Source: Minisyncoccota bacterium (GTDB taxonomy: Bacteria; Patescibacteriota; Minisyncoccia; Phycocordibacterales; GWA1-40-21). Taken from it: a stretch of 56,632 nucleotides of DNA. Location: the NCBI GenBank assembly GCA_041663745.1, contig JBAYMB010000001.1, positions 1 to 56,632 on the forward strand, read 5' to 3'. Both the position numbers and the translations under genes were made by a program. Below the pieces are notes generated by a model that had not been told where the DNA came from, made no database searches, and was given only the letters and a program-made list of their open reading frames with translations. This document shows positions 2,143 to 48,197 of this stretch, in pieces. The first letter of the stretch is position 1; each line of letters starts with the position of its first letter.

Positions 2143-2369
2143 CTATTTTTGCGTTGCACAACATCCTTTTACGACACTAGTGCGCAGAGGCAATCATTGG
2201 CTTTTTGAACGTTTCTCTGAGCTCAAATAGAGAATAAGTTTGAAAAGATATTTAGATAGTTTGGACAATATCGGATTGGAATCCCTTTCGTATGGATGTA
2301 GCAATAATAACAAAGTCAAGATGGGGATTTCACAAAGCGGAAATCCATCTTTTTTGATATAATAAACTT

Positions 2370-3197
2370 ATGAAACAAAGAGCTTTTACTCTCATAGAGC
2401 TTCTCGTAGTCATTGCCATCGTGGGCATTCTTTCTTCAGTCATCTACACGAATATCACAGGGCTCAGGGACAGAGCAAGGATAACTGCTGGAATACGGTT
2501 TGATTCCAGCTTGTACCATTCCATAGGAGATCAGCTTGTGGGAAAATATGACCTTGAGGAAGGAACTGGTGGATCGGGAACTGTCATAAAAGATGCAAGC
2601 GGATTGGGGAATAATGGAACGATAAACACTGCAGGTACGTCTTGGAGTACAGATACATATAATCAAACGCAATCAAGATATTCTATTTCTTTCAGCGGAG
2701 CTGACTACTTCACCCCTTCAAGGGGATTTGGCATATCAAACAGCAATTTCACATTCACCGAATGGATCAAGACTACGAGCACGAACGGTCAAATGTATAC
2801 CATAGCGAATGCAGGCGGCGGAGATGGATATAGGTTTGGACTGGCTGACGGGAAAATAGCTTTTCTAATCGGAAATAGCGGAGGCTTGAACGAATCTTTC
2901 GGCGCAGGTTGCACATCCAGATCCGTAAATGATGGTTCATGGCATCATATTGCAGGTGTCTTTGACCGGGTCAATGGCATATTTTCCTGCTATGTCGATG
3001 GGAACAAGGTCGGAACAAGATCAATCACATATTTTGCGAACATGAATGATTCTGCTCCAAGAATAGGCAAGGGGATTTGCTGCACCAATTTTGTAGGCTC
3101 GCTTGATGATGTGAGGATATACAGCTCAAGTCTTGATGGTCTGAGCATACGATCAATATACGAGGAAGAGAAGAATAAATATCTGGTCTCAAATTGA
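2370..3197 (+). CDS. Prepilin-type N-terminal domain protein with LamG/concanavalin-like domain (pseudopilin paralog 1)
   Basis: MKQRA|FTLIELLVVIAIVGILSS class-III signal, and a C-terminal ...LDDVRIYSSSL motif typical of LamG pilin-like proteins. TGaTATAAT (2355-2363) lies 6 nt before the ATG. Confidence 0.8.
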   Translation: MKQRAFTLIELLVVIAIVGILSSVIYTNITGLRDRARITAGIRFDSSLYHSIGDQLVGKYDLEEGTGGSGTVIKDASGLGNNGTINTAGTSWSTDTYNQTQSRYSISFSGADYFTPSRGFGISNSNFTFTEWIKTTSTNGQMYTIANAGGGDGYRFGLADGKIAFLIGNSGGLNESFGAGCTSRSVNDGSWHHIAGVFDRVNGIFSCYVDGNKVGTRSITYFANMNDSAPRIGKGICCTNFVGSLDDVRIYSSSLDGLSIRSIYEEEKNKYLVSN

Positions 3198-6988: not shown

Positions 6989-7027
6989 ACCTGACATAAT
7001 GAACTTAACTAATCACAGAGCATTACT

Positions 7028-7050
7028 GAGAGAGAGAGAGAGAGAGAGAG
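7028..7050. repeat. (GA)11.5 dinucleotide simple-sequence repeat
   Basis: An uninterrupted 23-nt GAGAGA...G run. It lies between ATG-6999 and the pilin reading frame. Confidence 0.95.
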
Positions 7051-7057
7051 TAACCGC

Positions 7058-7918
7058 TTGCTTCCGAATTATCATTCTAGTGCAAAGATAAGAGCCTTTA
7101 CGCTCATAGAACTTCTTGTCGTCATAGCCATTGTTGGCATACTCTCTTCTGTCATATATACAAATATCACAGGACTTCGGGACAGAGCAAAGATAACTGC
7201 AGGGATTAGATTTGATTCTTCCACTCTTCACTCAATTGGGGATCAGTTGGTAGGAGAGTGGACGTTTGATTCTCCCAACTTGCCTCTCATAGACACTTCG
7301 GGATTTGGAAATACAGGAACTTGCACAGCTTGTCCTACATACGCCACTACTTCTGGATATAACAATAAAGGAGCATATAGTTTTGATGGAATAAATGATT
7401 ACATAAGAATCGCTGATTCGGATATTTTAAGAATGAACGGCACGTCAAATTTAACTATGTCTGCTTGGATAAAGATTTCTAATTTGGCAGATTCTGACGA
7501 ACAATTTATTGTTAGTAAATATGGTTATGTTGCTAATACAGGATATTCTTTGGAGGTTTTGAGCACTGGAGCCGTAAGGATGAATATAAATGGTGGGGCA
7601 AATTCAAAAACAACTGCTACGAAACCTATTATCGCCGGTGTCTGGAGCCATATTGTCGGAGAATTTTCCAATGGAAATACAATAAAAGTATATGTTAATG
7701 GCTCATTAATTCAAACATGGCCTATAACACAGACTACGCTGATAAGTAATAATGGTATTTTGGCAATAGGTAGTCCTTCAGACAATGCTGGAATTGATAA
7801 TTATTCTTTATCCGGTTTAATTGATGATGTTCGCATTTATTCCTCAGCCCTCTCTTCTTCTGACATCCAAAAACTATATGCTGAAGGGAAGGCAAGCCAC
7901 GAAGTAGTGGTAAAATAA
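7058..7918 (+). CDS. Prepilin-type N-terminal domain protein with LamG-like domain (pseudopilin paralog 2)
   Basis: ...AKIRA|FTLIELLVVIAIVGILSS and C-terminal LIDDVRIYSSALSSSDIQKLYAEGK. The track start is TTG-7058 with no ATG. The frame stays open upstream through the GA repeat to 7013. Confidence 0.75.
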   Translation: MLPNYHSSAKIRAFTLIELLVVIAIVGILSSVIYTNITGLRDRAKITAGIRFDSSTLHSIGDQLVGEWTFDSPNLPLIDTSGFGNTGTCTACPTYATTSGYNNKGAYSFDGINDYIRIADSDILRMNGTSNLTMSAWIKISNLADSDEQFIVSKYGYVANTGYSLEVLSTGAVRMNINGGANSKTTATKPIIAGVWSHIVGEFSNGNTIKVYVNGSLIQTWPITQTTLISNNGILAIGSPSDNAGIDNYSLSGLIDDVRIYSSALSSSDIQKLYAEGKASHEVVVK

Positions 7919-12123: not shown

Positions 12124-12130
12124 TTAGTTC

Positions 12131-12169
12131 TTAACCCCATTCCGATTTATCGGAATGGGGTTAATTTTT
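12131..12169 (+). terminator. Strong rho-independent terminator
   Basis: 16-bp stem TTAACCCCATTCCGAT (12131-12146) / ATCGGAATGGGGTTAA (12149-12164), then T5. Confidence 0.8.
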
Positions 12170-12195
12170 GCATAAAAAATGATATAATGGCAGAA

Positions 12196-13872
12196 ATGCA
12201 TTTAGACACCAAACAGCTCAAAGACTTCCTCATAGACTCAGGGGTCATCACGCGAAGTGGATTCTCTGAGATAGAGGGAGATATAAAGAAAGGCAGATAC
12301 AAAGACTCTGCCGAAAAGGTGTTGGTGAGCCTCGGGAAGATCACGGAAGACGATCTGCGCAAAGCGGAATCATACTCTTTTGGGATTCCTTTTGTCGAGC
12401 TTAAAGGACATAAAATAGATCTTTCGATACTCTCGATCATCCCAGAGCCTATTTCCCGAAAGCATAATGTCATAGCTTTCAGCAGAATGAACGATTCAGT
12501 TGAAGTGGCTTTTCTTGATGTGAAAGATATTTCCTCAATTGAATTTTTGAAGGATAAGGGAATAAAGATCCTGCCGAGACTTACCGACACGGAGTCTATG
12601 CGATATGCACTTTTGCAATATCAGAAGCATTTGAAGACGGAGTTCGGGGATTTCATACAGAAGAACTCCTTGGAAGAGGGGGAGATAATAAAAGTAGTGG
12701 AGATGCTTGTGAAGCATGCACTTCTGCAGAACTCATCGGATATACATATAGAGTGCATGGAGGACAAGGTGGTCGTGAGATACAGGATAGCCGGGGTCTT
12801 GCATGATGCCATGATATTGCCCAAAGCCGCTGCGGCGAACATTGTCTCGAAGATAAGGTCACTGTCCAATTTGAAGACTACTGATATGCCTCAGGAAGGC
12901 AAGCTCAAGACGAAGATAGATGGGGAGGAGCTTTCTCTCCGAGTTTCGATCACACCTACGTATTTCGGGGAGAAGACCGTCATGAAGTTCTTGAAGGACA
13001 ATGTCGGAGGATATTCATTCCAATCACTCGGTCTTTTCGGAGAGAATCTTGAGAAGGTCCATGAGGTCATATCGGAAAGGAACGGAATGGTCCTTGTTGC
13101 AGGACCCAAGGGGTCCGGAAAGACCTCCACTTTGTATGCAATGCTTGAATCCCTGAACAATCCGAGCATTAGCATAGGGACAATTGAAGATCCAATAGAA
13201 TATCAGATGCCGAGAGTGAACCAGATGCAGGTCAAGGAGAAGGCAGGTTTGACCTTTGCTCATGGCTTGCGCTCCCTCGTCAAGCAGGATTCGGATGTGA
13301 TCATGGTTGGAGATATAGCCGACAGCGAGACTGCATCTTTGAGCGTCAGCGCCGCTTTAACAGGTCACTTCGTCCTTTCCGCCATAAATGCAAATTCGGC
13401 GCTCGGCGCCATTCAGAAGCTTTCCCAGATGAAGGTTGAGCCGTTCGCAGCCGCTTCAGCGGTGAAGCTTGTCGTGAGCCAGCGCCTTGTCAGGAGACTT
13501 TCCGATTCAAAGCAAAAGTACATTCTGTCCAAGTCGGAACTAGGAACGCTCTCAAAGATAGTTGACATGGAAAGGGTCCTGAAGATCCTGAAGGAGGAGA
13601 ACATCGTGGGGCAAAAGGACGATTGGTCCAAGATCCACTTTTTCAAGCCGAAGTCAGATAATGCGCACGACGCATATTCCGGAAAAGTCGCTATACACGA
13701 GGTAGTGAGGATTACTCCTGCCATAAGGGAGCTTTTGGTAAAGGGGGCTGGGCATAAGGAGATAGAGGCTGAGTCGAAAATGGAGGGGAACAGGTCTGCT
13801 ATCGAGGATGGCATGGTCAAATGCGCCATGGGCCTCACGACAGTCGATGAGGTCTTGAAATCGGAGTTCTAG
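12196..13872 (+). CDS. pilB: Type II secretion/type IV pilus assembly ATPase (GspE/PilB family)
   Basis: Walker A GPKGSGKTST, GspE-type Asp/His boxes and an N-terminal GSPII-like domain. The first ATG (12187) overlaps the -10 of TGaTATAAT (12180-12188), so ATG-12196, 7 nt after the -10, is preferred. Confidence 0.85.
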   Translation: MHLDTKQLKDFLIDSGVITRSGFSEIEGDIKKGRYKDSAEKVLVSLGKITEDDLRKAESYSFGIPFVELKGHKIDLSILSIIPEPISRKHNVIAFSRMNDSVEVAFLDVKDISSIEFLKDKGIKILPRLTDTESMRYALLQYQKHLKTEFGDFIQKNSLEEGEIIKVVEMLVKHALLQNSSDIHIECMEDKVVVRYRIAGVLHDAMILPKAAAANIVSKIRSLSNLKTTDMPQEGKLKTKIDGEELSLRVSITPTYFGEKTVMKFLKDNVGGYSFQSLGLFGENLEKVHEVISERNGMVLVAGPKGSGKTSTLYAMLESLNNPSISIGTIEDPIEYQMPRVNQMQVKEKAGLTFAHGLRSLVKQDSDVIMVGDIADSETASLSVSAALTGHFVLSAINANSALGAIQKLSQMKVEPFAAASAVKLVVSQRLVRRLSDSKQKYILSKSELGTLSKIVDMERVLKILKEENIVGQKDDWSKIHFFKPKSDNAHDAYSGKVAIHEVVRITPAIRELLVKGAGHKEIEAESKMEGNRSAIEDGMVKCAMGLTTVDEVLKSEF

Positions 13873-21140: not shown

Positions 21141-21210
21141 GTTGACTTTTAATTTCATCTTTGTTAATACTTAGATTAGAAGTTTGAGAAAAGACAGGAA
21201 GGAGCGGAAC

Positions 21211-21804
21211 ATGAAAGTGTCAGAGAGCGCATTTGCGATGAGTTACGAAGACATCAGAACAAGCCTTACTGTCATAGCAGCGGAACGCGAGTGGGGAGAC
21301 TGCGCCGGGACGAAGTCTTTGGAAGAGCTCATCTCGGAAGTGGAAAAAGGCGAAAGTTTCGTGGCAAAGGTCGAGGGGCTCGGTATTGTCCGCGTCATCA
21401 TGTCCGTTCGGGTCAAAGTCCTTCATCAAGACCTGATCTTGTGGGAGTTGTTCCGCAAAAAGGAAGGCAAGATATCGTCTAGATATCTCAATTCTTCTTT
21501 GGGGGAAAAGATGTTTGTCGATGAGAAGCCCAAGGATGCCGCTTTGCGGGGCCTTCTTGAGGAATTGGGCGTGACCGTGGACAGGAATGACCTATCGGCC
21601 ACAGTCGTGGATCCCAAAAGGGAGGTGAAGGATTCGGGAAGCTTTCCCGGGCTCAAGACGGTATATTATTTCTACCCCTTTGCAGTCACTTTCGACTCTC
21701 GCGCCTACAAATCAGAATACATCACTGAAGAGAATGGGCGCAAGACCTGTTTTGTCTGGATACCGGTCGAATCATGGATAAAGATCCAAGAACTGATCTC
21801 CTGA
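21211..21804 (+). CDS. Nudix-like protein with a degenerate Nudix box, in a G+C-rich islet
   Basis: GEKMFVDEKPKDAALRGLLEELGV compares with GX5EX7REUXEEXGU: the second half RGLLEELGV fits, the first half is off by one residue. Start taken at ATG-21211, 6 nt after GGAAGGAG. Confidence 0.4.
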   Translation: MKVSESAFAMSYEDIRTSLTVIAAEREWGDCAGTKSLEELISEVEKGESFVAKVEGLGIVRVIMSVRVKVLHQDLILWELFRKKEGKISSRYLNSSLGEKMFVDEKPKDAALRGLLEELGVTVDRNDLSATVVDPKREVKDSGSFPGLKTVYYFYPFAVTFDSRAYKSEYITEENGRKTCFVWIPVESWIKIQELIS

Positions 21805-21820
21805 GATTCGATCGTTTGGA

Positions 21821-21852
21821 GGGTGGCGTGCCATTAGGGCGCCACCTTTTTT
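21821..21852. terminator. Bidirectional terminator between convergent genes
   Basis: GGTGGCG (21822-21828) pairs with CGCCACC (21840-21846), then T6. It overlaps the stop of the minus-strand HAD gene. Confidence 0.65.
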
Positions 21853-22537
21853 ATATCAAATACTTCTCTATTTCTACGAGCAAAGACAGCTGAGGACAAT
21901 CAACATCAAGATTTTTTTCTTTCTGGTTCACCAAGATCGAATTTATTCCCAATTTCTTCGGTTCCATGTGATCTGACATCACTCTGTCTCCGATATACAA
22001 GAACTGGTCAGGTTTGAGACTAGGATATTTTTTCATCCATATCTTATATGCCGAACCGTCCGATTTTGAGACATCATCTTGAGTGAAAATATTATTGAAT
22101 AGACGGAGATCGAACCCAAGATGTCCAAGTTTTTCCTTTGTTATCTTCAGGTTTGAGCCGGTTATGATATCCAGATTGCCATACCTTTCCTTCAGTTTTT
22201 TGACGATGCTCAGTGTTTTTTCGTCAGGGCTCAAGAACTTCGCTATATCGGCCTTTTCAAGGGCCATTTGAACGACCTCTTTGGCATTTGGAACGCCAAG
22301 AACCTCCAGACTTTTGCTGCCGCTCAGTCCAGCCCCGTCCTTATACAGGTCTTTGAACATTTTTTTGGATTCCTCTATGGTCGTGTGCCTTTGCTCCGAT
22401 ATCTTCCTATATATGTATTCTTGTATAGTCTCATCGATCTCCGGAGATTTCGGAAAGAGCGTCTGGTCCAGATCGAAGCCTATGACCTTTATGTTTTTTT
22501 TATAGTCAAAATTCATATTAGTTTGATCTTCCGACAT
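21851..22537 (-). CDS. HAD-superfamily (subfamily IA-like) phosphatase, possible nucleotidase
   Basis: Motif I VIGFDLDQTLF, with motif III/IV ...YIGDRVMSD. Overlaps the upstream gene by 20 nt. Confidence 0.75.
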   Translation of the reverse strand: MSEDQTNMNFDYKKNIKVIGFDLDQTLFPKSPEIDETIQEYIYRKISEQRHTTIEESKKMFKDLYKDGAGLSGSKSLEVLGVPNAKEVVQMALEKADIAKFLSPDEKTLSIVKKLKERYGNLDIITGSNLKITKEKLGHLGFDLRLFNNIFTQDDVSKSDGSAYKIWMKKYPSLKPDQFLYIGDRVMSDHMEPKKLGINSILVNQKEKNLDVDCPQLSLLVEIEKYLI

Positions 22538-24926
22538 ATATTATCACGGATTCACCGAGATCGTTCCCCAGCTCTTTCTTGTATTGCGTCACGAGATAGT
22601 TCACAAGCCCTCTGTCTTTTTCCAGATTTTTTATGGAATGGTTCATGAACACTGCTGTGGCGTATATCTTTTCGCCATACACATTCGCTTGGAAGAATGC
22701 CAGCATGTCGGATTGCGGGTCGGTCTTGCCCGGAATATATTCGCCTATTATCGGGTTATTGTGCTTGCCGCCCTTTTTGACTAGATATTCTATGGCTTTA
22801 TTGAGTATGTTGACGCTGTTGTAATTTTCCAGGACGTCCAAAGTCCTGCTTTTCGGCCTCTCGTCGCTCTCCTTCGCCTGTTCTTGGAATATAGCGACGA
22901 TATTTTTCGGCCTTATTCCGCCTTTTCCTTTCAGATCATACGGTCCGCTGTCCATATTCACCTCACCGCAAGGTTTGGACGGTTCTGCGAGGATCTTCTT
23001 CGTCCTCTGCTCTTCGGACAGAAGCAGAATGTTTGCCCTGTTTGAGAGCATGAACATATCGCCGGATCTCAATCCCAAAGCTTCCCGAAGGGGAGCGACA
23101 TATGCATCATGCAGTCCGAAGATGTTTTCCGGATATGCATTCACCGCGTTATGCGCTCTTGCTATGTGGAAAGAATGTAATTTCCCGTTCTCAACGAAAA
23201 ATATGTCGTGGGTCAGGCAGGGGTCATGGGAAAATTTGAGCTTCTTGGTCGCGGTATCGATGTAGAAGGACATGTCCTTCACGGGATCGAACCTTTGGAC
23301 TATGGTCGCCAGATCCTTGTTCTTCAACAAGGTCTTTTTGGTCGTTTCCATCTGATCAAAGCCGAAATATGCCCTTGTCCTCTCGCCGTATGTATATGTC
23401 CCGTCGTTGTCCTTCCTCATCAATTGGCTCTTATATGCTTCCCTTATTTCTTCTCCCGTTTGATTTCCCTGCCTGTATATTTCCGGGAATATCTTCAATG
23501 CGGAATCCACATCCCTGTATATGGCAAGCACGGAAGCGGACCTCGCCAGTCCTTTCCACTCATCCCCGTGATTTTCCGTTATGCCCTCGGTGTATATCTT
23601 CCTCAATACGGATTTATGGGTATCCAAGAACGAATCGCTCTCCGAAACGAGGAAGGGGAGCTTTGTCTTGTTTATCTTGAATATGGGGATGAAGTCCTGA
23701 ATGAAGGAATAGCCGAATTTTGCCGCTATCCCGGCCCTGCTTGTCTGGGTTCCGACATCCAGCCTGTGCAGGAAATCCATCTCATATCTCTCAAATCTGT
23801 CCAATTCGGCTATCTTCTCAAGGACAACGGTGACGCTCTCTGATATGAGCTCAAAAATCTCCTCGCAGGCGTCAAAAGCCATGCACATGACGCGCACGCC
23901 TTCCTTGCCATTGTTTATCTTGTAGTAGTATTTTTTGTCTATTATGGTCTTAATCTGGTTTTCCACGGGAATCTCTCTCGTACCAAGAATATTATTTTCT
24001 TTCACGAAAGGCTTCGTCTCAATGCTGTTTGAGAGCTCGATGCTTGCTCGTCCGAGCTCTGCGCCGAGCACGAGCTGTTCAATATGGGAGAAGGAATCTT
24101 TTTCTTTGCCCAAGAATTTCAAAAGGGTGTATCCGACAATGAAAGGATTCTCCGATTTTATGAAAACATCCCCCTTTTTTGTCCTTATATCGAGCCTTAT
24201 GTACTTTCCTTCGGCGACCGATGCTTTGAACGGGCAGTCGAAAGTCTCGTCTTTTCCGGAGAGTATGATCTTCGGGGGCTCAAGATGCCTGTATTCCTTC
24301 GGGTCTATGTTTATCGCGGTCTTTTTCTCCGTCTTAATCGAAGCTACCAATGAAATGAGCTTGTTCAGGGAGTCATAGTATATCTTGTCTTTTTTGTTAA
24401 TCTCCTCAAGGAGAGCTATGATCTTCGGATCGGTTTTCGGCTTGAGCCAGTTCAGGTAGTTTTCTATTATCTTTTGACTGGCCGCATTTTTGTGCATGAA
24501 CACAGGCAGAACTATGATCTCATCCTTGAAAATATTGAATATGTTCTTGCTCAGGTTGGGGTAATATGGCGAGGCGGCGATACCTTCTTTGATGTAATTT
24601 CCTTCCTTGTTCTCCACGAATCCGTTCTGCATGGCCTGCAGAAGGTTCGTGCTCGGGGCGAAGGTCACGGTCTCCTCGGAGAAAAGTATGAGGTATCTTT
24701 GGGTCGGATGGGCGAGGCAGTTCAATATCATCCTTTCAACGCCATCTCGGCTTACGATGAGCGACCCGAGGACCGCCACATTCTTCCTGTTGTTCTCCTC
24801 TATGCTGCTCAAAACCTCACCGGCCGACGTGGTGTTCGTGCATATGCCGATAATCCCTTGCGCTCCTTCCTCGGGCGTCAGGAGTATCGCTTCTACCAAT
24901 GGAAATTTTGTTTTTATGTCCTTCAT
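22518..24926 (-). CDS. 802-aa fusion: MtrA/DUF4346-like N-terminal domain + unknown middle region + thymidylate-synthase (ThyA)-fold domain
   Basis: Residues ~50-140 (GVERMILNCLAHPTQRYLILFSEE...LLQAMQNG...) parallel MtrA [24 protein letters not shown]...IEALHQNG. Residues ~510-635 (YGERTRAYFGFDQ...DPCLTHDIFFVENGKLHSFHIARAHNAVNAYPENIFGL...GDMFML) parallel ThyA YGKQWR...DQ...[38 protein letters not shown]...GDFVWT. Confidence 0.7.
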   Translation of the reverse strand: MKDIKTKFPLVEAILLTPEEGAQGIIGICTNTTSAGEVLSSIEENNRKNVAVLGSLIVSRDGVERMILNCLAHPTQRYLILFSEETVTFAPSTNLLQAMQNGFVENKEGNYIKEGIAASPYYPNLSKNIFNIFKDEIIVLPVFMHKNAASQKIIENYLNWLKPKTDPKIIALLEEINKKDKIYYDSLNKLISLVASIKTEKKTAINIDPKEYRHLEPPKIILSGKDETFDCPFKASVAEGKYIRLDIRTKKGDVFIKSENPFIVGYTLLKFLGKEKDSFSHIEQLVLGAELGRASIELSNSIETKPFVKENNILGTREIPVENQIKTIIDKKYYYKINNGKEGVRVMCMAFDACEEIFELISESVTVVLEKIAELDRFERYEMDFLHRLDVGTQTSRAGIAAKFGYSFIQDFIPIFKINKTKLPFLVSESDSFLDTHKSVLRKIYTEGITENHGDEWKGLARSASVLAIYRDVDSALKIFPEIYRQGNQTGEEIREAYKSQLMRKDNDGTYTYGERTRAYFGFDQMETTKKTLLKNKDLATIVQRFDPVKDMSFYIDTATKKLKFSHDPCLTHDIFFVENGKLHSFHIARAHNAVNAYPENIFGLHDAYVAPLREALGLRSGDMFMLSNRANILLLSEEQRTKKILAEPSKPCGEVNMDSGPYDLKGKGGIRPKNIVAIFQEQAKESDERPKSRTLDVLENYNSVNILNKAIEYLVKKGGKHNNPIIGEYIPGKTDPQSDMLAFFQANVYGEKIYATAVFMNHSIKNLEKDRGLVNYLVTQYKKELGNDLGESVIIYVGRSN

Positions 24927-24930
24927 TGTT

Positions 24931-25809
24931 TTATTTCCAGTTCTTGCTACTCCAGGAATTCGGCAGATATTCCGATATTGAGTGTTTGTCCATTTTTTCA
25001 GAATCCATGGAGAAACAATGTATGTTCGGGTTCAAATTGAATTTTGCCGATATCTCAGCGATGAATTGGCGGCAGATTCCGCACATATTGCAAGGCTCAT
25101 CCGCATACTTTGTTGAAACGAGAGCGATATCAGTCATCTCCGCATTCCCATCCATCATCGCAGACAGCATTGCGCACATCTCCGAGTGTAGGCCAAGCCT
25201 TTTGTCCGGAGTGGAGTATTGCCCGGCAAAATACAGAGTGCCGTTTTTTGTGAGCACTGCCGTGCCGTATCCAGAAGCTTTGTCGGATGTCGGGAAGTTC
25301 CTCGTCACTCCTTCGATCGCATATTTTTTCAGAGTTCTCGTCTTATCTTCCTCGTCTCTGACCTTGACCGCGATCTTGTTCTTTGAAACTTCAGAATCGT
25401 TCGTCATGGAAAGGATGTTCATCTTCGGGTCATAGTATTTTGAAAGCTCCGTGACATCCTTTACAGATAGCAGGGTCTTTCCTTCAGAATCTATCACCTC
25501 GTATGATATCGGCACTCCGGTTCTTTTATAGTGATCGATCATTATCTCAACGGTCTGAGGCAAGACTGAGACACTGTCTTCCACAAGCGTTATCACTTTG
25601 TTTATTTTGTAGTCTCTTGAAGCTGAGGCCAATGCCAAGGATGCCTGTTCTGAGCTTATGTTCAAAAGATGCGTATCGGAATCAACCGAGCCTGCAATAT
25701 ATGAGTTTCCCTTTTCCGATATGGCAATAGAGGATGTCTTTTTACCTTCCTTTTTTTTGCTGACGCACAGATCCAAGGCCTCTTTTAGGGTTTTTGCGTG
25801 ATTTTGCAT
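24931..25809 (-). CDS. cdd: Two-domain cytidine deaminase (degenerate N-terminal domain, catalytic C-terminal domain)
   Basis: C-terminal half has HSEMCAM (H-A-E type) and PCNMCGICRQFIAE (PCxxC) zinc motifs. The N-terminal half has SEQASLA and LPQTVEIM at the equivalent positions, with no ligands. Confidence 0.75.
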   Translation of the reverse strand: MQNHAKTLKEALDLCVSKKKEGKKTSSIAISEKGNSYIAGSVDSDTHLLNISSEQASLALASASRDYKINKVITLVEDSVSVLPQTVEIMIDHYKRTGVPISYEVIDSEGKTLLSVKDVTELSKYYDPKMNILSMTNDSEVSKNKIAVKVRDEEDKTRTLKKYAIEGVTRNFPTSDKASGYGTAVLTKNGTLYFAGQYSTPDKRLGLHSEMCAMLSAMMDGNAEMTDIALVSTKYADEPCNMCGICRQFIAEISAKFNLNPNIHCFSMDSEKMDKHSISEYLPNSWSSKNWK

Positions 25810-25812
25810 ATC

Positions 25813-26718
25813 CTAGAATATGTCTATATTGCTCCTTAATCTGCTGATGTTCAATTTCGTATTTGACCAGTCATAGTGCAGAACCTTTTTCAAAAAGTCG
25901 TTGAAAAGATGGATCTTGTCCCTCTCAAGCCTCGGGTACATTTTCTCTGATCTCTTGCTTGAAAGCCGTATGGTAGGTCTGAAAGGCATGGGGAAGGCGT
26001 AATACGGCACCAGGCTGGTATTTTTTTGAGGTTCGACAAGTATCACATTTATCGGTTCATTCAAATACTCGGTGGCGTAATCTATCCTGTGGCTTCCATC
26101 GCAGACTATGTAGAAATCATGCGGGCCGTTGTATTGCACGCCGTAATTTATGATGGGTGCGTTTGAATTGAAGATGTCCAAGTGCCTTATGGCGCTCACC
26201 TCGTCTATGTTGAAGTTCTGAAGATACCTGTTTGATATCTTGTGCAGATATTCCTGAGCGTCCTTCACGCAGTATCCTTCGAACTTTTCCACGAGCTTAT
26301 CAAGATCGACATAGCCGTTCTTTAGGTCATACGTATGTTTTTCCACTATTGGTGGTATCATGTGATACGAGTCTCTACCTTCCCAGTCGTATCCTATGCC
26401 TCCTTCAAGCTGATGGACTCTCATCTTCTCTCCCTTGAGGAACTCATCCACTGTTTTTATTATATCAAGCTGGTTCAGATATATCGTCGGCTGGGGAGAG
26501 AACAAAGTCTCCTTCTTTTTGCCGGAAAGTATGGTCGGGGAATCGCACATCGATTTCGGGGGATAGACGGTGGTCAAAGTGAACTTGGCATTCTCATACG
26601 GCTTCAATTTTTCCCCCTTTTTGTCATATATACCTCTAAAGGTGAGTGTTCTTAACACCTTTTTCAATTCCTCAAAGTCTATTTTGGATTTTAACGTCAG
26701 TTTGTGGTTCATGGCCAA
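25813..26718 (-). CDS. ParB/sulfiredoxin-fold (DGxHR) domain protein of unknown function
   Basis: HDFYIVCDGSHRIDYATEYLNEPINVILV matches the ParB N-terminal/Srx core (x-DG-x-HR). First gene of the minus-strand operon. Confidence 0.55.
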   Translation of the reverse strand: MAMNHKLTLKSKIDFEELKKVLRTLTFRGIYDKKGEKLKPYENAKFTLTTVYPPKSMCDSPTILSGKKKETLFSPQPTIYLNQLDIIKTVDEFLKGEKMRVHQLEGGIGYDWEGRDSYHMIPPIVEKHTYDLKNGYVDLDKLVEKFEGYCVKDAQEYLHKISNRYLQNFNIDEVSAIRHLDIFNSNAPIINYGVQYNGPHDFYIVCDGSHRIDYATEYLNEPINVILVEPQKNTSLVPYYAFPMPFRPTIRLSSKRSEKMYPRLERDKIHLFNDFLKKVLHYDWSNTKLNISRLRSNIDIF

Positions 26719-26821: not shown

Positions 26822-27292
26822 ATGGGAAATATCGATCAAAAACAGGTGAAATACGTCCTAGAGACGGACAAGTTCATGAAACTGGCCAGGGAATATGCTG
26901 AAAGGTATTCGACCGACCGACTGCAGCCTGTCGGTTCTGTCATTGTCAAGAACGGAGAGGTCGTGGGGGGAGGGGCGAACAAGATGCCCATAAACAACCA
27001 CAGGTTCCAATTGATGCATGCTCGGGGATTTTGTATACGTCGAATTCTACATATTCCATCTGGAAAGCTATACTGGCTCTGTCCCGGATGCGGCCAGCCG
27101 AGAAATCATTCGGAAAGAAGGGCTATTAGAGATGCTGTGAAGAGGGGTATGGATATAGATGGAGCGGACCTATACCTTTGGGGACATTTTCAAGTGTGCG
27201 AGACATGTCGGGATGCTATAATGAAGGCTCGGATAAAGAATGTCTTCTTGCTTGAGAATAGCAATGTTCTGTTTAAAAGGAAAAATACATAA
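26822..27292 (+). CDS. dCMP (deoxycytidylate) deaminase-family zinc deaminase
   Basis: HSERRAIRDA (HxE) and QVCETCRDAIMKA (CxxC) motifs; ~156 aa, ComEB/dCMP-deaminase-like. Confidence 0.75.
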   Translation: MGNIDQKQVKYVLETDKFMKLAREYAERYSTDRLQPVGSVIVKNGEVVGGGANKMPINNHRFQLMHARGFCIRRILHIPSGKLYWLCPGCGQPRNHSERRAIRDAVKRGMDIDGADLYLWGHFQVCETCRDAIMKARIKNVFLLENSNVLFKRKNT

Positions 27293-27294
27293 CA

Positions 27295-27717
27295 ATGAAA
27301 CTAAAGATCAAAAAACTTCATTCTGATGCAAAGATTCCTCACTATGCTCACCCGGGCGATGTGGGTTTAGATCTTTTTTCGTTGGAAGATTACAATTTGA
27401 AACCAATGGAAAGAAAAGTTTTTGATATCGGATTTGCTTTGGAGTTTGAGATTGGCTATGCGGCAATAGTAAAAGACAAGAGCTCTTTGCCAAATAAGGC
27501 TGGGATACATACGATGGGCGGGGTATATGATGCGGGCTATCGCGGGGAATATAATGTCCAACTCATAAATCTCGGACAGGAAACATATCATATATCAAAA
27601 GGGGATAAGATAGCGCAACTCGTCATATATCCTGTTATCATAGCCGAGCTTGAGGAAACTGACGATCTGTCTGATTCCAGCCGAGGCCACGGAAGATTTG
27701 GAAGCACGGGGAAATGA
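27295..27717 (+). CDS. dut: dUTP diphosphatase
   Basis: AHPGDVGLDL, GVYDAGYRGE, IAQLVIYPV and SSRGHGRFGSTGK dUTPase motifs. Lies 2 nt after the deaminase gene. Confidence 0.9.
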   Translation: MKLKIKKLHSDAKIPHYAHPGDVGLDLFSLEDYNLKPMERKVFDIGFALEFEIGYAAIVKDKSSLPNKAGIHTMGGVYDAGYRGEYNVQLINLGQETYHISKGDKIAQLVIYPVIIAELEETDDLSDSSRGHGRFGSTGK

Positions 27718-34792: not shown

Positions 34793-34871
34793 TTTAAGAT
34801 ATGAGTTTGAGCGAGACTTGCCTCGCCCTTTTTTTCCATTAAAAATCTGATACAATGGAAACTCATATATT

Positions 34872-37800
34872 ATGACCGAAAAACAGCAAAAACCGGTGAC
34901 AAAAAGCAAATTTGCCGAAAGGGAGGAGGAGATATTGCAATTCTGGCAAGAGAGGGAGATATTCAAGAAAACTTTGGAAAAACCTTCAAAGGGCGAGTTT
35001 GTCTTCTATGACGGACCTCCTTTCGCGACAGGTCTTCCTCACTACGGCCATATCCTTGCCGGCACAATGAAGGATTACATCGGCAGATATCAGACGATGA
35101 AGGGCAAGCACGTTCCTCGCCGATGGGGCTGGGACACCCACGGAATTCCCGTGGAAGTCATTGTTGAAAAGGAGATCGGGCTCAAATCAAAAAAGGACGT
35201 TGAAGATTTTGGCTTGGAAAAGTTCAATGACATAGCCAGGTCAAAGGTCATGACATACGCCGATGATTGGAAGAAAATAATCCCTAGGCTCGGGAGATTT
35301 GTGGACATGGAGAACGACTACAAGACGATGAACTCGGCCTTCACCGAAAGCGTCTGGTGGGTCTTCAAGGAATTGCACAAGAAAGGCCTGGTATATGAAG
35401 GCTTCAAATCAATGCACATATGCCCTCATTGCGGTACGACCCTATCAAATTTTGAAGTAGGTCAGGGATATAAAGACATTACAGATCTGTCTGTCACGGT
35501 AAAATTCGAGCTTGTGGATGAGCCTAATACATTTGTCTTGGCTTGGACGACGACCCCATGGACCCTTCCAGGGAACGTGGCTCTTGCAGTGAACCCAAAA
35601 TTCGACTATGTGGAAATAGAGAGGAAGGATGAAGGAAGGTTCATACTGGCGAAAGATCTCTTGAAAAAGGTTTTCAAGGATGAAAAGTATTCCATAGTCA
35701 AGGAGATGAAGGGCGCTGAGCTTGTAGGCAGATCATACAATCCGCTTTTCTCATACTATGACAAGATAGACATCAAAAACAAGGAAAACGGCTTCAAGAT
35801 ATATCCGGCTGATTTCGTCACAATGGAAGACGGCACCGGAGTGGTGCATATCGCCCCTGCATTCGGCGAGGACGATCTGAAGCTTGGAAATGAGAAGAAG
35901 CTTCCCTTCATCCAGCATGTCGGGATGGACGGAAGGTTCAGGCCAGAGGTCACGGATTTTGCCGGCCAAAAGGTCAAACCAATAGAAGATCCCCAAGCTG
36001 CGGACATTGAGATCATAAAATTCTTGGCCAAGAAGGGGACTTTGTTTGAAAAGGAGAAGTTCATCCACTCATATCCTCATTGCTACAGATGCGACACCCC
36101 GCTTTTGAACTACGCCACGAGCTCATGGTTCGTTGAGATAGCGAAATTCAAGGACAAGCTCATTGCGGCCAACAAAAAGATAAGATGGGTCCCAAGCGAT
36201 CTTGGGGAAGGCAGATTCGGAAAGCTTCTGGAGTCTGCTCCTGATTGGTCCATCTCAAGAACGAGATTTTGGGGCGCATCGATGCCAATATGGAGATGCC
36301 AGAACGAGAAATGCAATGAGAAGGAGTTCATCGGATCGGTCGGGGAGATAAAGGAAAGGACGAAAAGCAAGAACAAGTTCCTGGTCGTCAGGCACGGAGA
36401 GTCGGAGAGCAATCTCACGGGAATTCTGAGCTCCGATCCGAAGTCAGTTAACCATCTGACTGACAAAGGCAGGGAACAAGCTGTCCTTGCCGCAAAGAAC
36501 CTCATGCACAAGGTGGATGTCATATACTGCTCTCCTTTCATGAGGACAAAAGAGACCGCCGAGATCATCGCAGAAACAATCGGATATCCGAAGGACAAGA
36601 TCGTATACGATGAAAGGCTTCATGAGATATATGGGGGGGAATTTGACGGCAAGAACGACAAGGAATATCAGGCATTCTTCGGGAACAGGGAGGAAAAGTT
36701 CACAAAAACCCCTAAAGGAGGGGAGAACTACCAAGTAGTCATCAAAAGGATGACCGAGTTCGTATATGAGACTGACGCAAAAAATGAAGGAAAGAACATC
36801 CTGATCGTCTCCCACAATACCCCTATCTGGCTCATGTTCTGCGGAACTGCGGGGCTTGATAAGAAACAGGCTTTGAAGACAAGGAAGCAGGGAGAGGCTT
36901 TTATAGAGAATTCCGAGATCAAAGAGCTTGATTTTGCCCCCATTCCGCACAACAGGAACTATGAGCTTGACCTCCATCGCCCGTTCATCGATGAGATAAA
37001 TCTCAAATGCAAATGTGGCGGTGTGATGAAGCGCATCCCCGAGGTCTTTGATTGCTGGTTCGAGTCCGGGTCCATGCCATACGGTGAGATGCACTATCCT
37101 TTCGAGAATACGGACATATTCGACCCGAAGAAGCATCTCAGATTTCCTGCAGACTTCATTGCCGAGGGAATAGACCAGACTCGCGGATGGTTCTACTCCA
37201 TGCTTGTCGTCTCAGTCGCGCTTTTCGGCGAGTCTTCATACAAGAATGTCATTGCAAACGGGATTGTCCTTGCGGAAGACGGGTTGAAAATGGCAAAGAG
37301 ACTGAAAAATTACACCGATCCTGTCATGCTTGCCGAGAAATACAGCGCTGATGCCATGCGATACTATCTTTTGTCATCTCCAGGCGTGCGGGCGGAAGAC
37401 CTGAAATTCTCCGATCGTGGAGTCGATGAGACATTGAAAAAAGTGATCATGAGGCTCCAAAACGTCTTCTCTTTCTTTGAGATGTATGGCGGATTTGATG
37501 TGGCAGTGAAGGAGAATGCCTCAAAGAACATTTTGGACAAGTGGATTCTCGCAAGACTAGAAGAGACTGCTTTTCAAATAACAAAAGCGACTGATAACTA
37601 TGAACTGGACAGGGCGACAAGGCCGATAGCGGACCTTGTGGACGACATCTCTACGTGGTTCCTGAGGAGATCGAGAGACAGATTTAAGTCCGAGGACGCG
37701 GAGGACAGGCACTCGGCTATGCTGACGACTCGAACCGTGATACTCGAGCTTTCCAAGCTCATGGCCCCTTCGATGCCTTTTCTTGCCGAGGACCTATACT

Positions 37801-38375
37801 TGAAAATAACGGGCGGGATGGGGAAGGAGAGCGTTCATTTGGAAGATTGGCCGGACCATCTTGTGAAAGAGCTTTCGGATGAAAAGACCAAGATGATAGA
37901 AACGATGAATGAAGTGAGGAAGATCGTATCTTTGGGACTTGAGGCAAGGGTGAAGGCGGGTATAAAAGTCAGACAGCCCCTGTCCAGTTTGAAGGTCAAA
38001 AGCGAGAAGTTCGAAGGAAAGAAGGAATACCTAGATCTCATCAGGGACGAGGTCAATGTAAAAGAGGTCGTATGCGATGCATCGATTGCAAACGAGATCG
38101 AGCTTGATGTGAACATCACGCCTATATTAAAAGATGAGGGGATCATGCGTGATATCGTCAGAGCCATTCAGGACTTGAGGAAGAACAAGAAGCTCAATCC
38201 GAGTGACCTTGTAGATCTTGTAGTGGATACCGATGATGCAGGTAAGAGGATATTCGAGAAATTCACAGAAGAGATATCAAAGACGACTGGTCTCAAAGAA
38301 ATAAGTTTTGAACATCTTGATAGCGGGGAGATCTTGGAGCTTGAGGGGATGAGAGCTAGGGTGGAGATAGCATAG
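34872..38375 (+). CDS. ileS: Isoleucyl-tRNA synthetase (type 2-like) with an inserted histidine-phosphatase (PGAM-like) domain
   Basis: PHYGHILAG (HIGH), CP1 editing domain (TTTPWTLPGN), GLKMAKRLKNY (KMSKS-like). Residues ~498-697 form an insertion carrying LVVRHGESESN and ILIVSHNTPIW. Confidence 0.9.
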   Translation: MTEKQQKPVTKSKFAEREEEILQFWQEREIFKKTLEKPSKGEFVFYDGPPFATGLPHYGHILAGTMKDYIGRYQTMKGKHVPRRWGWDTHGIPVEVIVEKEIGLKSKKDVEDFGLEKFNDIARSKVMTYADDWKKIIPRLGRFVDMENDYKTMNSAFTESVWWVFKELHKKGLVYEGFKSMHICPHCGTTLSNFEVGQGYKDITDLSVTVKFELVDEPNTFVLAWTTTPWTLPGNVALAVNPKFDYVEIERKDEGRFILAKDLLKKVFKDEKYSIVKEMKGAELVGRSYNPLFSYYDKIDIKNKENGFKIYPADFVTMEDGTGVVHIAPAFGEDDLKLGNEKKLPFIQHVGMDGRFRPEVTDFAGQKVKPIEDPQAADIEIIKFLAKKGTLFEKEKFIHSYPHCYRCDTPLLNYATSSWFVEIAKFKDKLIAANKKIRWVPSDLGEGRFGKLLESAPDWSISRTRFWGASMPIWRCQNEKCNEKEFIGSVGEIKERTKSKNKFLVVRHGESESNLTGILSSDPKSVNHLTDKGREQAVLAAKNLMHKVDVIYCSPFMRTKETAEIIAETIGYPKDKIVYDERLHEIYGGEFDGKNDKEYQAFFGNREEKFTKTPKGGENYQVVIKRMTEFVYETDAKNEGKNILIVSHNTPIWLMFCGTAGLDKKQALKTRKQGEAFIENSEIKELDFAPIPHNRNYELDLHRPFIDEINLKCKCGGVMKRIPEVFDCWFESGSMPYGEMHYPFENTDIFDPKKHLRFPADFIAEGIDQTRGWFYSMLVVSVALFGESSYKNVIANGIVLAEDGLKMAKRLKNYTDPVMLAEKYSADAMRYYLLSSPGVRAEDLKFSDRGVDETLKKVIMRLQNVFSFFEMYGGFDVAVKENASKNILDKWILARLEETAFQITKATDNYELDRATRPIADLVDDISTWFLRRSRDRFKSEDAEDRHSAMLTTRTVILELSKLMAPSMPFLAEDLYLKITGGMGKESVHLEDWPDHLVKELSDEKTKMIETMNEVRKIVSLGLEARVKAGIKVRQPLSSLKVKSEKFEGKKEYLDLIRDEVNVKEVVCDASIANEIELDVNITPILKDEGIMRDIVRAIQDLRKNKKLNPSDLVDLVVDTDDAGKRIFEKFTEEISKTTGLKEISFEHLDSGEILELEGMRARVEIA

Positions 38376-47372: not shown

Positions 47373-47390
47373 TAGTATAATGCTAAGGTA

Positions 47391-48197
47391 ATGAAAAATA
47401 AGGCTTTCACTCTCATTGAACTTTTGGTTGTCATTGCCATCATAGGCATACTCTCTTCCGTTATCTATTCAAATATCACAGGACTCCGGGACAGAGCAAA
47501 GGTGACGGCAGGAATAAGGTTTGATTCTTCCGCACTTCATTCCATTGGAGATCAATTGGTTGGAGAATGGACCTTTGATATACCGACAAATCCTTTGGTT
47601 GACACTTCAGGATTCAATAATAACGCAGCCACCGCTACTGTCGGGACATCCCCAACCTATTCATCTATCGGAGGATATAACAACAAAGGGAATCTCAGTT
47701 TTGACGGAGGAGATTATGTGACAGTCCAGAATTCCAGCAGTATGGGCATAAGCGGGGATATCACCATAAGTGTATGGGTGTATCGCAACTCATCCTCAGG
47801 ATCCGTTCTTGTTCACAAAGATGCCAATTATTCGATATATATAACAGTGGTTGATCAAATCACTTGGGCGGATAGCAGCAATTGGAGCTATCTGAATTTT
47901 GGATATCACGGCAATGTATCCAATGGCGCTTGGCATAATGTGGCCGCTACCAAGTCTGGTTCAAAAGTCACGATCTATTTGGACGGTTCTGTCGTCATAA
48001 GTAAAGCTTTCGGCAGTGCGATAGTTTCTAACAGCAATATCACAGCTTTTGGATGTTTTTCATCCGGGGGCGGTTGCACCACTTTTTTAGATGGCAAGCT
48101 TGATGATATCCGTATTTATTCTAGCGTTCTTTCTTCTTCTGACATCCAAAAACTGTATGCAGAAGGAAAAGATTCACATAATTTAGCAAACAAATGA
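47391..48197 (+). CDS. Prepilin-type N-terminal domain protein with LamG-like domain (pseudopilin paralog 3)
   Basis: MKNKA|FTLIELLVVIAIIGILSS and C-terminal KLDDIRIYSSVLSSSDIQKLYAEGK. TATAAT (47376-47381) lies 9 nt before the ATG. Confidence 0.8.
   Translation: MKNKAFTLIELLVVIAIIGILSSVIYSNITGLRDRAKVTAGIRFDSSALHSIGDQLVGEWTFDIPTNPLVDTSGFNNNAATATVGTSPTYSSIGGYNNKGNLSFDGGDYVTVQNSSSMGISGDITISVWVYRNSSSGSVLVHKDANYSIYITVVDQITWADSSNWSYLNFGYHGNVSNGAWHNVAATKSGSKVTIYLDGSVVISKAFGSAIVSNSNITAFGCFSSGGGCTTFLDGKLDDIRIYSSVLSSSDIQKLYAEGKDSHNLANK

Follow-up and report, generated by a model that had tools for sequence, protein, structure and literature searches.

A candidate single-chain thymidylate synthase joined to an MtrA/DUF4346-like module in CPR bacteria and DPANN archaea

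Introduction

Thymidylate synthases of the archaeal or methanogen type (TIGR03283, MJ0757 type; PF00303) have a compact fold of ~200–230 residues, and their one-carbon donor is poorly established (PMC9012536). MtrA, the corrinoid subunit of methyl-tetrahydromethanopterin:coenzyme M methyltransferase (PF04208; PDB 5L8X, 5LAA and 8Q3V), is built on a Rossmann-type domain and works with MtrH, and its His84 is the lower axial ligand of cobalt (PMC4915002). Here we describe an 802-residue protein of the Candidate Phyla Radiation (CPR) in which relatives of both families are joined in one chain. Its gene lies in positions 1 to 56,632 of contig JBAYMB010000001.1 (assembly GCA_041663745.1, a Minisyncoccota bacterium), a stretch of 56,632 nucleotides that we refer to as the window. 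The open reading frame (ORF) starts on the minus strand with an ATG at 24926 (24924–24926) and ends with a stop codon at 22518–22520, exactly where an initial annotation, made from the sequence alone, had placed it. The identical NCBI record (WCX27_00135) is a hypothetical protein of a Candidatus Paceibacterota metagenome-assembled genome (MAG), and JGI names the protein 'thymidylate synthase / tetrahydromethanopterin S-methyltransferase subunit A'.

Compared with methanogen-type ThyA, the protein has a homologous catalytic domain with the Pro-Cys-Leu nucleophile motif, equivalents of Arg166 and Asn177 (ThyA residues are numbered as in E. coli), and the YG.R.R and DQ motifs. It differs in the changed positions Ser167, Asp169, His207 and Tyr209, in an 11-residue insertion before the Cys, in unconserved Arg126 and Arg127 positions and in a profile score below the family cutoff. 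It also adds ~420 residues of accessory domains before the catalytic domain and a degenerate half-copy after it. The likeness to MtrA resides in the N-terminal Rossmann-type domain, which is fused to ThyA, whereas MtrA itself works with MtrH.

Two further groups of enzymes invite comparison. In the DHFR-TS proteins of protozoa and plants, ThyA is covalently joined to a Rossmann-type domain connected with pterin metabolism. The parallel is one of analogy only: DHFR-TS is a homodimer with two live thymidylate synthase sites, whereas the present protein shows no DHFR homology (no PF00186 match in Pfam and NCBIfam scans of it or of 44 family members), and no reductase activity can be inferred for its MtrA-like domain. 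The cytidine monophosphate (CMP) hydroxymethylases MilA and BcmA, the T4 deoxy-CMP (dCMP) hydroxymethylase and the phage flavin-dependent 5-hydroxy-dCMP synthases (9IQU, 9IQC) have the ThyA fold and the Cys nucleophile, and MilA and BcmA also have the Ser167-to-Ala change in common with the present protein. However, these enzymes carry Asp at position 177 and so act on cytosine, whereas the present protein keeps Asn, and they are homodimers without accessory domains that come from antibiotic or phage DNA-modification clusters rather than from housekeeping loci.

We found no published account of a protein that combines MtrA or DUF4346 with ThyA, of the pseudo-dimeric architecture proposed below or of the four-gene operon that encodes the protein in CPR and DPANN genomes. 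What is already known is that databases label its relatives 'thymidylate synthase' and that the individual domains are known families.

Results and Discussion

The protein contains an archaeal-type ThyA domain with a remodelled active site

Sequence comparison and structure prediction divide the protein into five parts: an MtrA-like domain (N), two β3-α2 units (M1 and M2), a ThyA domain (T) and a degenerate ThyA half (C) (Table 1). We lean towards the reading that it is a single-chain, one-active-site, pseudo-dimeric thymidylate synthase of these CPR and DPANN organisms, with the MtrA/DUF4346 region as its dedicated partner.

The T domain is matched by TIGR03283 (E = 9e-15; residues 432–607 against model positions 7–168 of 201), and hhalign aligns it with 110 archaeal-type ThyA domains at a probability of 100% (E = 1e-40). 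Direct sequence searches of the PDB matched MtrA and no ThyA. The full-length AlphaFold model (predicted local distance difference test, pLDDT, 85; predicted template modelling score, pTM, 0.74) gives >400 PDB matches at E ≤ 1e-3 in Foldseek. The best 50 are all ThyA-fold proteins, namely thymidylate synthases, MilA and phage dCMP hydroxylases (E 1.5e-8 to ~3e-7), and the best single match among those listed is the phage dCMP hydroxylase 9iqu (target-normalised TM-score 0.73). The initial annotation had assigned a ThyA-fold domain by eye and had named AlphaFold and Foldseek as a check. The profile, hhalign and structural matches bear the domain out, and every motif it had picked (YG.R, DQ, DPC570L, RAHN, PEN601 and the lost H-x-Y) aligns as proposed.

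Within the T domain, Asp-Pro-Cys570-Leu, Arg590, Asn601, YG.R.R and DQ are invariant in 44 CPR and 11 DPANN sequences, and retained and changed active-site residues alike are fixed across the two groups. Asn at ThyA position 177 specifies uracil and Asp specifies cytosine (PMC13326640; PMC5175136). With Cys570, Arg590 and Asn601 kept and other contacts changed, the apparatus for base recognition and covalent catalysis is intact, and the sugar, phosphate and pterin pockets are remodelled. In the favoured reaction, Cys570 would attack C6 of deoxyuridine monophosphate (dUMP), and C5 would receive a methylene group from 5,10-methylene-tetrahydrofolate, which a neighbouring SHMT could supply; reduction of this group to methyl would yield deoxythymidine monophosphate (dTMP).

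Conservation is not confined to the active site. Patescibacteria hold >120 full-length homologs at 49–81% identity, and in an alignment of the 44 CPR homologs the mean column identity over the whole length is 61%, which indicates that all parts of the protein are under constraint. The most conserved stretches in this set are residues 61–100 of the MtrA-like domain and the ThyA core; between CPR and DPANN, the live ThyA domain is the best-conserved region (50–53% identity). These figures bear on the possibility that the ThyA-like parts are catalytically dead and that the protein acts as a nucleotide-binding regulator or scaffold. In its favour, a number of the canonical ThyA contacts differ and one ThyA-like part of the two is plainly degenerate, but the strict invariance of the Cys, Arg590, Asn601, YG.R.R and DQ between bacteria and archaea at 40–45% overall identity, together with the strong conservation of the live domain, makes this possibility very improbable in our judgement.

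Several observations nevertheless weigh against an ordinary thymidylate synthase. The TIGR03283 score (54.7 bits) is far under the equivalog cutoff of 174.55, and the protein itself has no PF00303 match in a Pfam scan. Asp169, which forms a hydrogen bond to the pterin and is kept by canonical archaeal-type relatives, is replaced by the invariant Asn593 (Arg590-Ala-His-Asn593). The three deoxyribose contacts are all replaced (Ser167 by Ala591, His207 by Asn632 and Tyr209 by Leu634), and in MilA and BcmA the ribonucleotide preference comes from the Ser167-to-Ala change together with Arg126′ to Lys (PMC5175136). Furthermore, the three accessory domains have a role that ordinary ThyA chemistry does not explain.

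Some of these features would suit an enzyme that does not make dTMP, for example a uridine monophosphate C5-methylase or a uracil-nucleotide hydroxymethylase that works with its operon partners in a CPR/DPANN-specific pathway. Four sugar-pocket determinants all differ from those of deoxy-specific enzymes, among them the two positions that set ribose preference in MilA and BcmA, Ser167 (here Ala) and the partner Arg126′ (here Asn), and the loss of Asp169 can be counted on the same side. His567 and Asp568 lie just ahead of Cys570, and the first of the two positions (Leu143 in E. coli) is acidic in hydroxymethylases. However, a polar residue there is also common in canonical archaeal-type ThyA, and we rejected the rule that an acidic residue at Leu143 marks a hydroxymethylase as not transferable to this family. 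The top Foldseek match among those listed, the phage dCMP hydroxylase 9iqu, can also be counted here, but it owes most to the small size of the two domains. In containing a phosphatase and a ParB-CE protein that is uncharacterised, the operon is closer to nucleoside-modification clusters than to an isolated thyA gene; its surroundings, on the other hand, are housekeeping and dUMP-centred (dUTPase, dCMP deaminase, dcd, SHMT, rplK). Asn601 predicts a uracil base, and the family is near-universal in lineages that need some source of dTMP. On this evidence we consider an activity other than dTMP synthesis unlikely.

A degenerate ThyA half may act as a built-in partner

ThyA-like sequence at the C terminus, also proposed in the initial annotation, is recovered by hhalign in the same register and without the Cys: residues 651–802 match archaeal-type ThyA with a probability of 97.7% (E = 2e-12; 101 columns, residues 697–798). 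The aligned region corresponds to the second half of the ThyA profile, with its central-sheet and helix elements, and a broad ThyA hidden Markov model (HMM) matches the C domain in many family members. Within the family alone, an hhalign comparison of four regions of the protein against each other gives no internal duplication (probability ≤3%), and the C-terminal half is visible only with the broader archaeal ThyA profile. Besides the Cys, the equivalent of Arg166 is missing. An invariant His722-Asn723-Asn724 stands where ThyA has Ser-Arg126-Arg127, whereas in the T domain the Arg126 and Arg127 positions are unconserved (Leu-Ala in the window protein).

Half-of-the-sites reactivity of ThyA dimers is established enzymology, and a pseudo-dimer with a single active site is therefore reasonable. 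We infer that the dead half lies sheet-to-sheet against the live domain and takes the place of a partner protomer within the same chain. This arrangement is plausible, and it fits the sheet and helix elements retained in the degenerate half, the pairing of His722-Asn723-Asn724 with unconserved Arg126/Arg127 positions, and the recurrence of active and inactive ThyA copies in tandem. His722-Asn723-Asn724 would be contributed by the dead half to the phosphate site, where the partner normally gives Arg126′-Arg127′, and two lineage-specific, invariant arginines of the T domain, Arg545 and Arg630, may compensate for these residues.

The same domain order, including the degenerate second ThyA half, is found in a remoter bacterial group of 810–906 residues, and the degenerate half also occurs in P0236. 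In Abditibacteriota (P0174/P0285; 786 residues), ThyA is followed by a ThyA copy with Ser in place of the Cys and then by two DUF4346 domains, an arrangement in which active and inactive copies seem to have been joined independently.

The accessory region comprises MtrA-like and DUF4346-like domains

The N domain is likely homologous to MtrA, although it misses the curated family cutoffs. PF04208 matches residues 46–144 with E = 2e-5 and 24.7 bits against a gathering score of 25, and NCBIfam NF002126 reaches E = 2.5e-9 but 36.9 bits against a cutoff of 161. PF04208 is matched by 27 of the 44 family members, and the family profile matches the PDB MtrA chains 8q3v and 5laa at E ~4e-4. The column of the cobalt ligand His84 is occupied by Phe89, which is invariant in all CPR and DPANN members, and two other cobamide contacts are changed (Thr53 to Val58 and Asn55 to Arg60). 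Some residues of the cobamide pocket lining, or next to those that make its hydrogen bonds, are kept and invariant: Gly57 is Gly62, position 61 (Val or Met in MtrA) is Met66, and Asn64 is Asn69. Indeed, the best conservation of the N domain falls on the loops that hold the cofactor in MtrA (residues 61–100; mean column identity 0.83–0.88 in 44 sequences). In contrast to MtrA, the domain continues into soluble domains and not into a C-terminal transmembrane helix, and no other Mtr subunits were found among 37 window ORFs scanned against Pfam or among the called genes of three homolog loci (L001–L003).

The MtrA similarity claimed in the initial annotation is thus real but weak, and the reported loss of the corrinoid-ligating His region agrees with Phe89. 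Its placing of DUF4346 at the N terminus was mistaken: this domain lies at residues ~320–424, in the middle region that had been left unassigned.

When residues 206–424 are modelled alone, AlphaFold predicts two successive β3-α2 units (pLDDT 93.4; pTM 0.90). The second, M2, aligns at an hhalign probability of 98.3% (E = 2e-14) with the DUF4346 segments of relatives that are themselves recognised by PF14251, and its His387 and Gln410-Asp411 are kept from CPR to DPANN. M1 aligns only weakly with the same segments, although in register (probability 23%, E = 9e-4), and has the same secondary-structure pattern as M2; it is possibly a degenerate DUF4346 copy. The 802-residue protein has no direct PF14251 match at E ≤ 1, and one family member (P0126) has a weak direct match at the equivalent place. 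Foldseek finds no neighbour of the M1–M2 model in the PDB (best E 0.19) or BFVD (best E 0.03), which leaves this pair as a very confident predicted structure without a neighbour among solved structures. Cys348 and Cys354, invariant in the 44 CPR sequences, were considered as a metal site and rejected: in every one of the 11 DPANN sequences Cys348 is replaced by Ser or Ala, and in two of them Cys354 is replaced by Ser or Asp.

Fused and split relatives link the module to ThyA

A profile search of 1.8 billion representative proteins yielded only ~8 clusters of full-length relatives at 50% identity. A scan of GTDB species genomes gave 54 loci. Full-length homologs occur throughout CPR (Paceibacterota, Saccharibacteria, Peribacteria, Gracilibacteria and others) and, at 40–45% identity and with every key residue kept, in DPANN (Woesearchaeota, Nanoarchaeota and Iainarchaeum). 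A viral origin or a role as an auxiliary metabolic gene was rejected, as no relative was found in IMG/VR and the window is ordinary CPR housekeeping DNA.

Archaeal fusions of 460–540 residues, found in Thermoprotei and Aenigmatarchaeota MAGs, have the domain order MtrA-ThyA, MtrA-ThyA-DUF4346 or MtrA-DUF4346-ThyA. They resemble the 802-residue protein in their three kinds of domain and their thymidylate context. They differ in being shorter, with one DUF4346 before or after ThyA and no degenerate ThyA half; in most, the RS.D and HIY sites are canonical. Their NCBI name is 'thymidylate synthase', and some, including P0160 (190.8 bits) and P0176 (203.6 bits), lie above the TIGR03283 cutoff of 174.55 and have the canonical sites; we found no characterised member of these fusions, or of the split operon described below, in the literature. 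Several of the fused or split proteins still have the cobalt-ligating His and are strong matches to MtrA (E 1e-35 to 1e-54), and others have Phe. Among representatives, the His84 column holds His in 17 and Phe in 32 and is deleted in 49, the deletion affecting about half of the archaeal fusions. Two-domain relatives combine MtrA with DUF4346 or with MtrH (P0197).

A sizeable subclass of the archaeal MtrA-like–ThyA fusions has R-T-H-N and S-I-D instead of R-S-x-D and H-I-Y, along with a two-residue deletion at the His84 position. This subclass represents a second, independent loss of the pterin-contacting Asp. One MtrA(His)-ThyA fusion of 522 residues from a 'Thermoprotei archaeon' (P0166; L005, 8001–9569) is surrounded by many small unannotated ORFs, a resolvase and a PD-(D/E)XK-like gene, a setting that looks like a virus or mobile element.

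A split form is found in a Logan contig (L060; SRR24269693, 3187 base pairs), where rplK, dcd, MtrA+DUF4346 (291 residues), thyA (258 residues) and a DeoC-like gene are separate, closely packed genes with gaps of 4 nucleotides, and where the MtrA His84 is kept. This contig indicates that archaeal-type ThyA has the MtrA/DUF4346 module as a dedicated partner, in a setting that produces dUMP, and that the window protein is the fused form. In the split thyA, KTND and QIY replace RS.D and HIY, and Lys occupies the usual Arg166 position.

Such a partnership could also mean a mechanistically new thymidylate synthase, in which the module carries a cofactor (cobamide without a His ligand, or another large cofactor) that delivers the one-carbon unit or reducing equivalents to the ThyA site, and the pterin would not serve as it does in ThyA. 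The module is dedicated to ThyA, being split within an operon and fused in at least three domain orders, and several versions keep the cobalt His together with a strong MtrA match; MtrA-like domains are otherwise paired with pterin enzymes, such as MtrH in P0197. The invariance of the pocket positions Gly62, Met66 and Asn69, the loss of the pterin-binding Asp (Asn593) and the poorly established donor of methanogen-type ThyA count in the same direction. However, His84 is Phe in all CPR and DPANN members and is deleted in many archaeal fusions, so that His-on cobamide binding is not general. The His-type fusions retain HIY and the pterin-binding Asp of canonical enzymes, a sign that they use the pterin in the ordinary way in addition to the module, and beside the CPR/DPANN operon no corrinoid, MtrH or MeTr genes are seen, SHMT and FolD being found there instead. 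We regard a new mechanism of this kind as doubtful. We are just as hesitant about the broader proposal that the CPR/DPANN enzyme and its ParB-CE/deaminase/HAD operon form an unrecognised thymidylate route, a third mechanistic class beside ThyA and ThyX, and we see a real but small chance that the chemistry of the 802-residue protein is new. The evidence on the non-standard one-carbon donor suggested in the initial annotation is divided: the change to Asn593 and the dedicated module speak for it, whereas nearby SHMT (14 of the 54 loci) and FolD (3 of the 54) and the absent cobalt-ligating His point to ordinary methylene-tetrahydrofolate.

In the pseudo-dimeric thymidylate synthase that we favour, the MtrA-like/DUF4346 module would bind a ligand at the site where MtrA holds cobamide. 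With no His–cobalt bond to be made, it would assist cofactor handling or regulation rather than perform MtrA-type methyl transfer.

The gene lies in a conserved four-gene operon

The main gene is the third in a packed minus-strand operon, preceded by genes for a ParB-CE-like protein and a tandem cytidine-deaminase-like protein and followed by one for a HAD-family phosphatase (Table 1). The gaps among the first three genes are 3 and 4 nucleotides, the latter lying between the deaminase-like stop (24931–24933) and the main ATG, and the start of the HAD gene overlaps the main ORF by 20 nucleotides. The four genes keep their order in 48 of the 54 loci, among them the archaeal loci. Databases also contain fusions of the deaminase-like protein with the main protein (P0126) and of the main protein with HAD (P0127), which may be frameshift artefacts given that the operon genes abut or overlap.

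The C-terminal half of the deaminase-like protein keeps the HxE and PCxxC zinc motifs (HSE ... PCNMCGICRQ), and its N-terminal half is degenerate; like the main protein, it pairs one live and one degenerate half. CPR and DPANN versions of the ParB-CE-like protein are ~50–60% identical, and a remote 877-residue relative of the main protein (P0151; L004) likewise has a PF24392 gene next to it. A profile search of the PDB gave nothing significant for the ParB-CE-like protein, and a literature search for 'ParB-CE' gave only unrelated papers; our guess is a ParB/Srx-type kinase or NTPase.

Divergent from the operon are genes for dCMP deaminase and dUTPase, both of which produce dUMP. Genes close to the operon in the 54 loci include those for dUTPase (19 loci), SHMT (14), FolD (3) and rplK/nusG (~30); dUTPase, SHMT, nusG and rplK are often seen as neighbours in CPR genomes. 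In the proposed pathway, the deaminase-like, HAD and ParB/Srx-like partners would join dUTPase and dCMP deaminase in channelling salvaged pyrimidines to dUMP. Apart from the main protein, no ThyA, ThyX or DHFR was found among the 37 window ORFs scanned against Pfam, and the ThyX motif (RHR..S) is missing from all six-frame ORFs of the window. Between rplK and the HAD gene lies a NUDIX-like gene (21184–21804, plus strand, 206 residues; weak PF00293 match), which occupies the same place in 13 of the 54 loci.

Table 1. Features of the 802-residue protein and its operon, with window coordinates and E. coli ThyA counterparts
Feature	Coordinates	Strand	Basis or remark
Main ORF, 802 residues: MtrA-like + 2× DUF4346-like + ThyA + degenerate ThyA half	22518..24926	-	ORF list, codon check
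N domain, MtrA-like Rossmann, residues ~25-200	24327..24854	-	PF04208, NF002126, PDB MtrA by profile
Phe89 codon	24660-24662	-	replaces MtrA cobalt ligand His84
M1, β3-α2 unit, residues ~215-312, possibly degenerate DUF4346 copy	23991..24284	-	secondary structure, weak hhalign
M2, PF14251 PterinBD-DUF4346, residues ~320-424	23655..23969	-	hhalign against DUF4346 segments of relatives
T domain, archaeal/methanogen-type ThyA, residues 425-650	22977..23654	-	TIGR03283, Foldseek, hhalign
Tyr513-Gly514, then invariant Arg516 and Arg518			E. coli Tyr94-Gly95 (Y-G motif), kept
Asp524-Gln525			E. coli Asp110-Gln111 motif, kept
Cys570 codon	23217-23219	-	E. coli Cys146, nucleophile, kept
Arg590 codon	23157-23159	-	E. 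coli Arg166, phosphate binding, kept
Ala591			E. coli Ser167, sugar contact, changed
Asn593 codon	23148-23150	-	E. coli Asp169, hydrogen bond to pterin, changed
Asn601 codon	23124-23126	-	E. coli Asn177, uracil selection, kept
Asn632 codon	23031-23033	-	E. coli His207, sugar 3'-OH contact, changed
Leu634 codon	23025-23027	-	E. coli Tyr209, sugar 3'-OH contact, changed
C domain, degenerate ThyA half, residues ~660-802	22521..22949	-	hhalign, broad ThyA HMM
ParB-CE-like protein, 301 residues, DGSHR motif, first operon gene	25813..26718	-	PF24392 E=1.4e-5
Tandem cytidine-deaminase-like protein, 292 residues, second operon gene	24931..25809	-	PF00383, TIGR01354
HAD-family phosphatase, 228 residues, downstream operon gene	21851..22537	-	PF13419, PF00702
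dCMP deaminase, divergent from operon	26822-27292	+	PF00383 E=2e-17
dUTPase, divergent from operon	27295-27717	+	PF00692 E=3e-26

Implications

CPR and DPANN account for a sizeable part of microbial diversity and are presumed to rely on their hosts for nucleotides, and the source of their thymidylate bears on this dependence; metabolic reconstructions now count the 802-residue protein as plain 'thyA'. As an apparent natural single-chain ThyA with one active site, it bears on the half-of-the-sites behaviour of ThyA dimers, a subject of long discussion. The MtrA-like and DUF4346 domains, as a recurrent and dedicated partner of archaeal-type ThyA, offer a handle on MtrA homologs outside methanogenesis and on how archaeal-type thymidylate synthases obtain and reduce the one-carbon unit. 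Since the four-gene operon is common to bacteria and archaea with every key residue of the main protein kept, it is a clear case of inter-domain sharing between episymbiont lineages. Should the module prove to carry a cofactor for a new mechanism, the route would be one common to ultra-small symbionts across the bacterial–archaeal divide.

Other observations in the window

An isoleucyl-tRNA-synthetase-like class I synthetase (34851–38372, plus strand, 1174 residues) has a histidine-phosphatase domain (PF00300) inserted in the middle of its catalytic domain, and the same arrangement is present in another CPR genome (L003, 14055–17867). Three type-IV-pilin-like proteins encoded on the plus strand (2358–3194, 7013–7915 and 47376–48194) each combine an N-terminal methylation motif with a concanavalin/Laminin_G_3 domain, and a T2SSE/PilB-type ATPase is encoded at 12124–13869.

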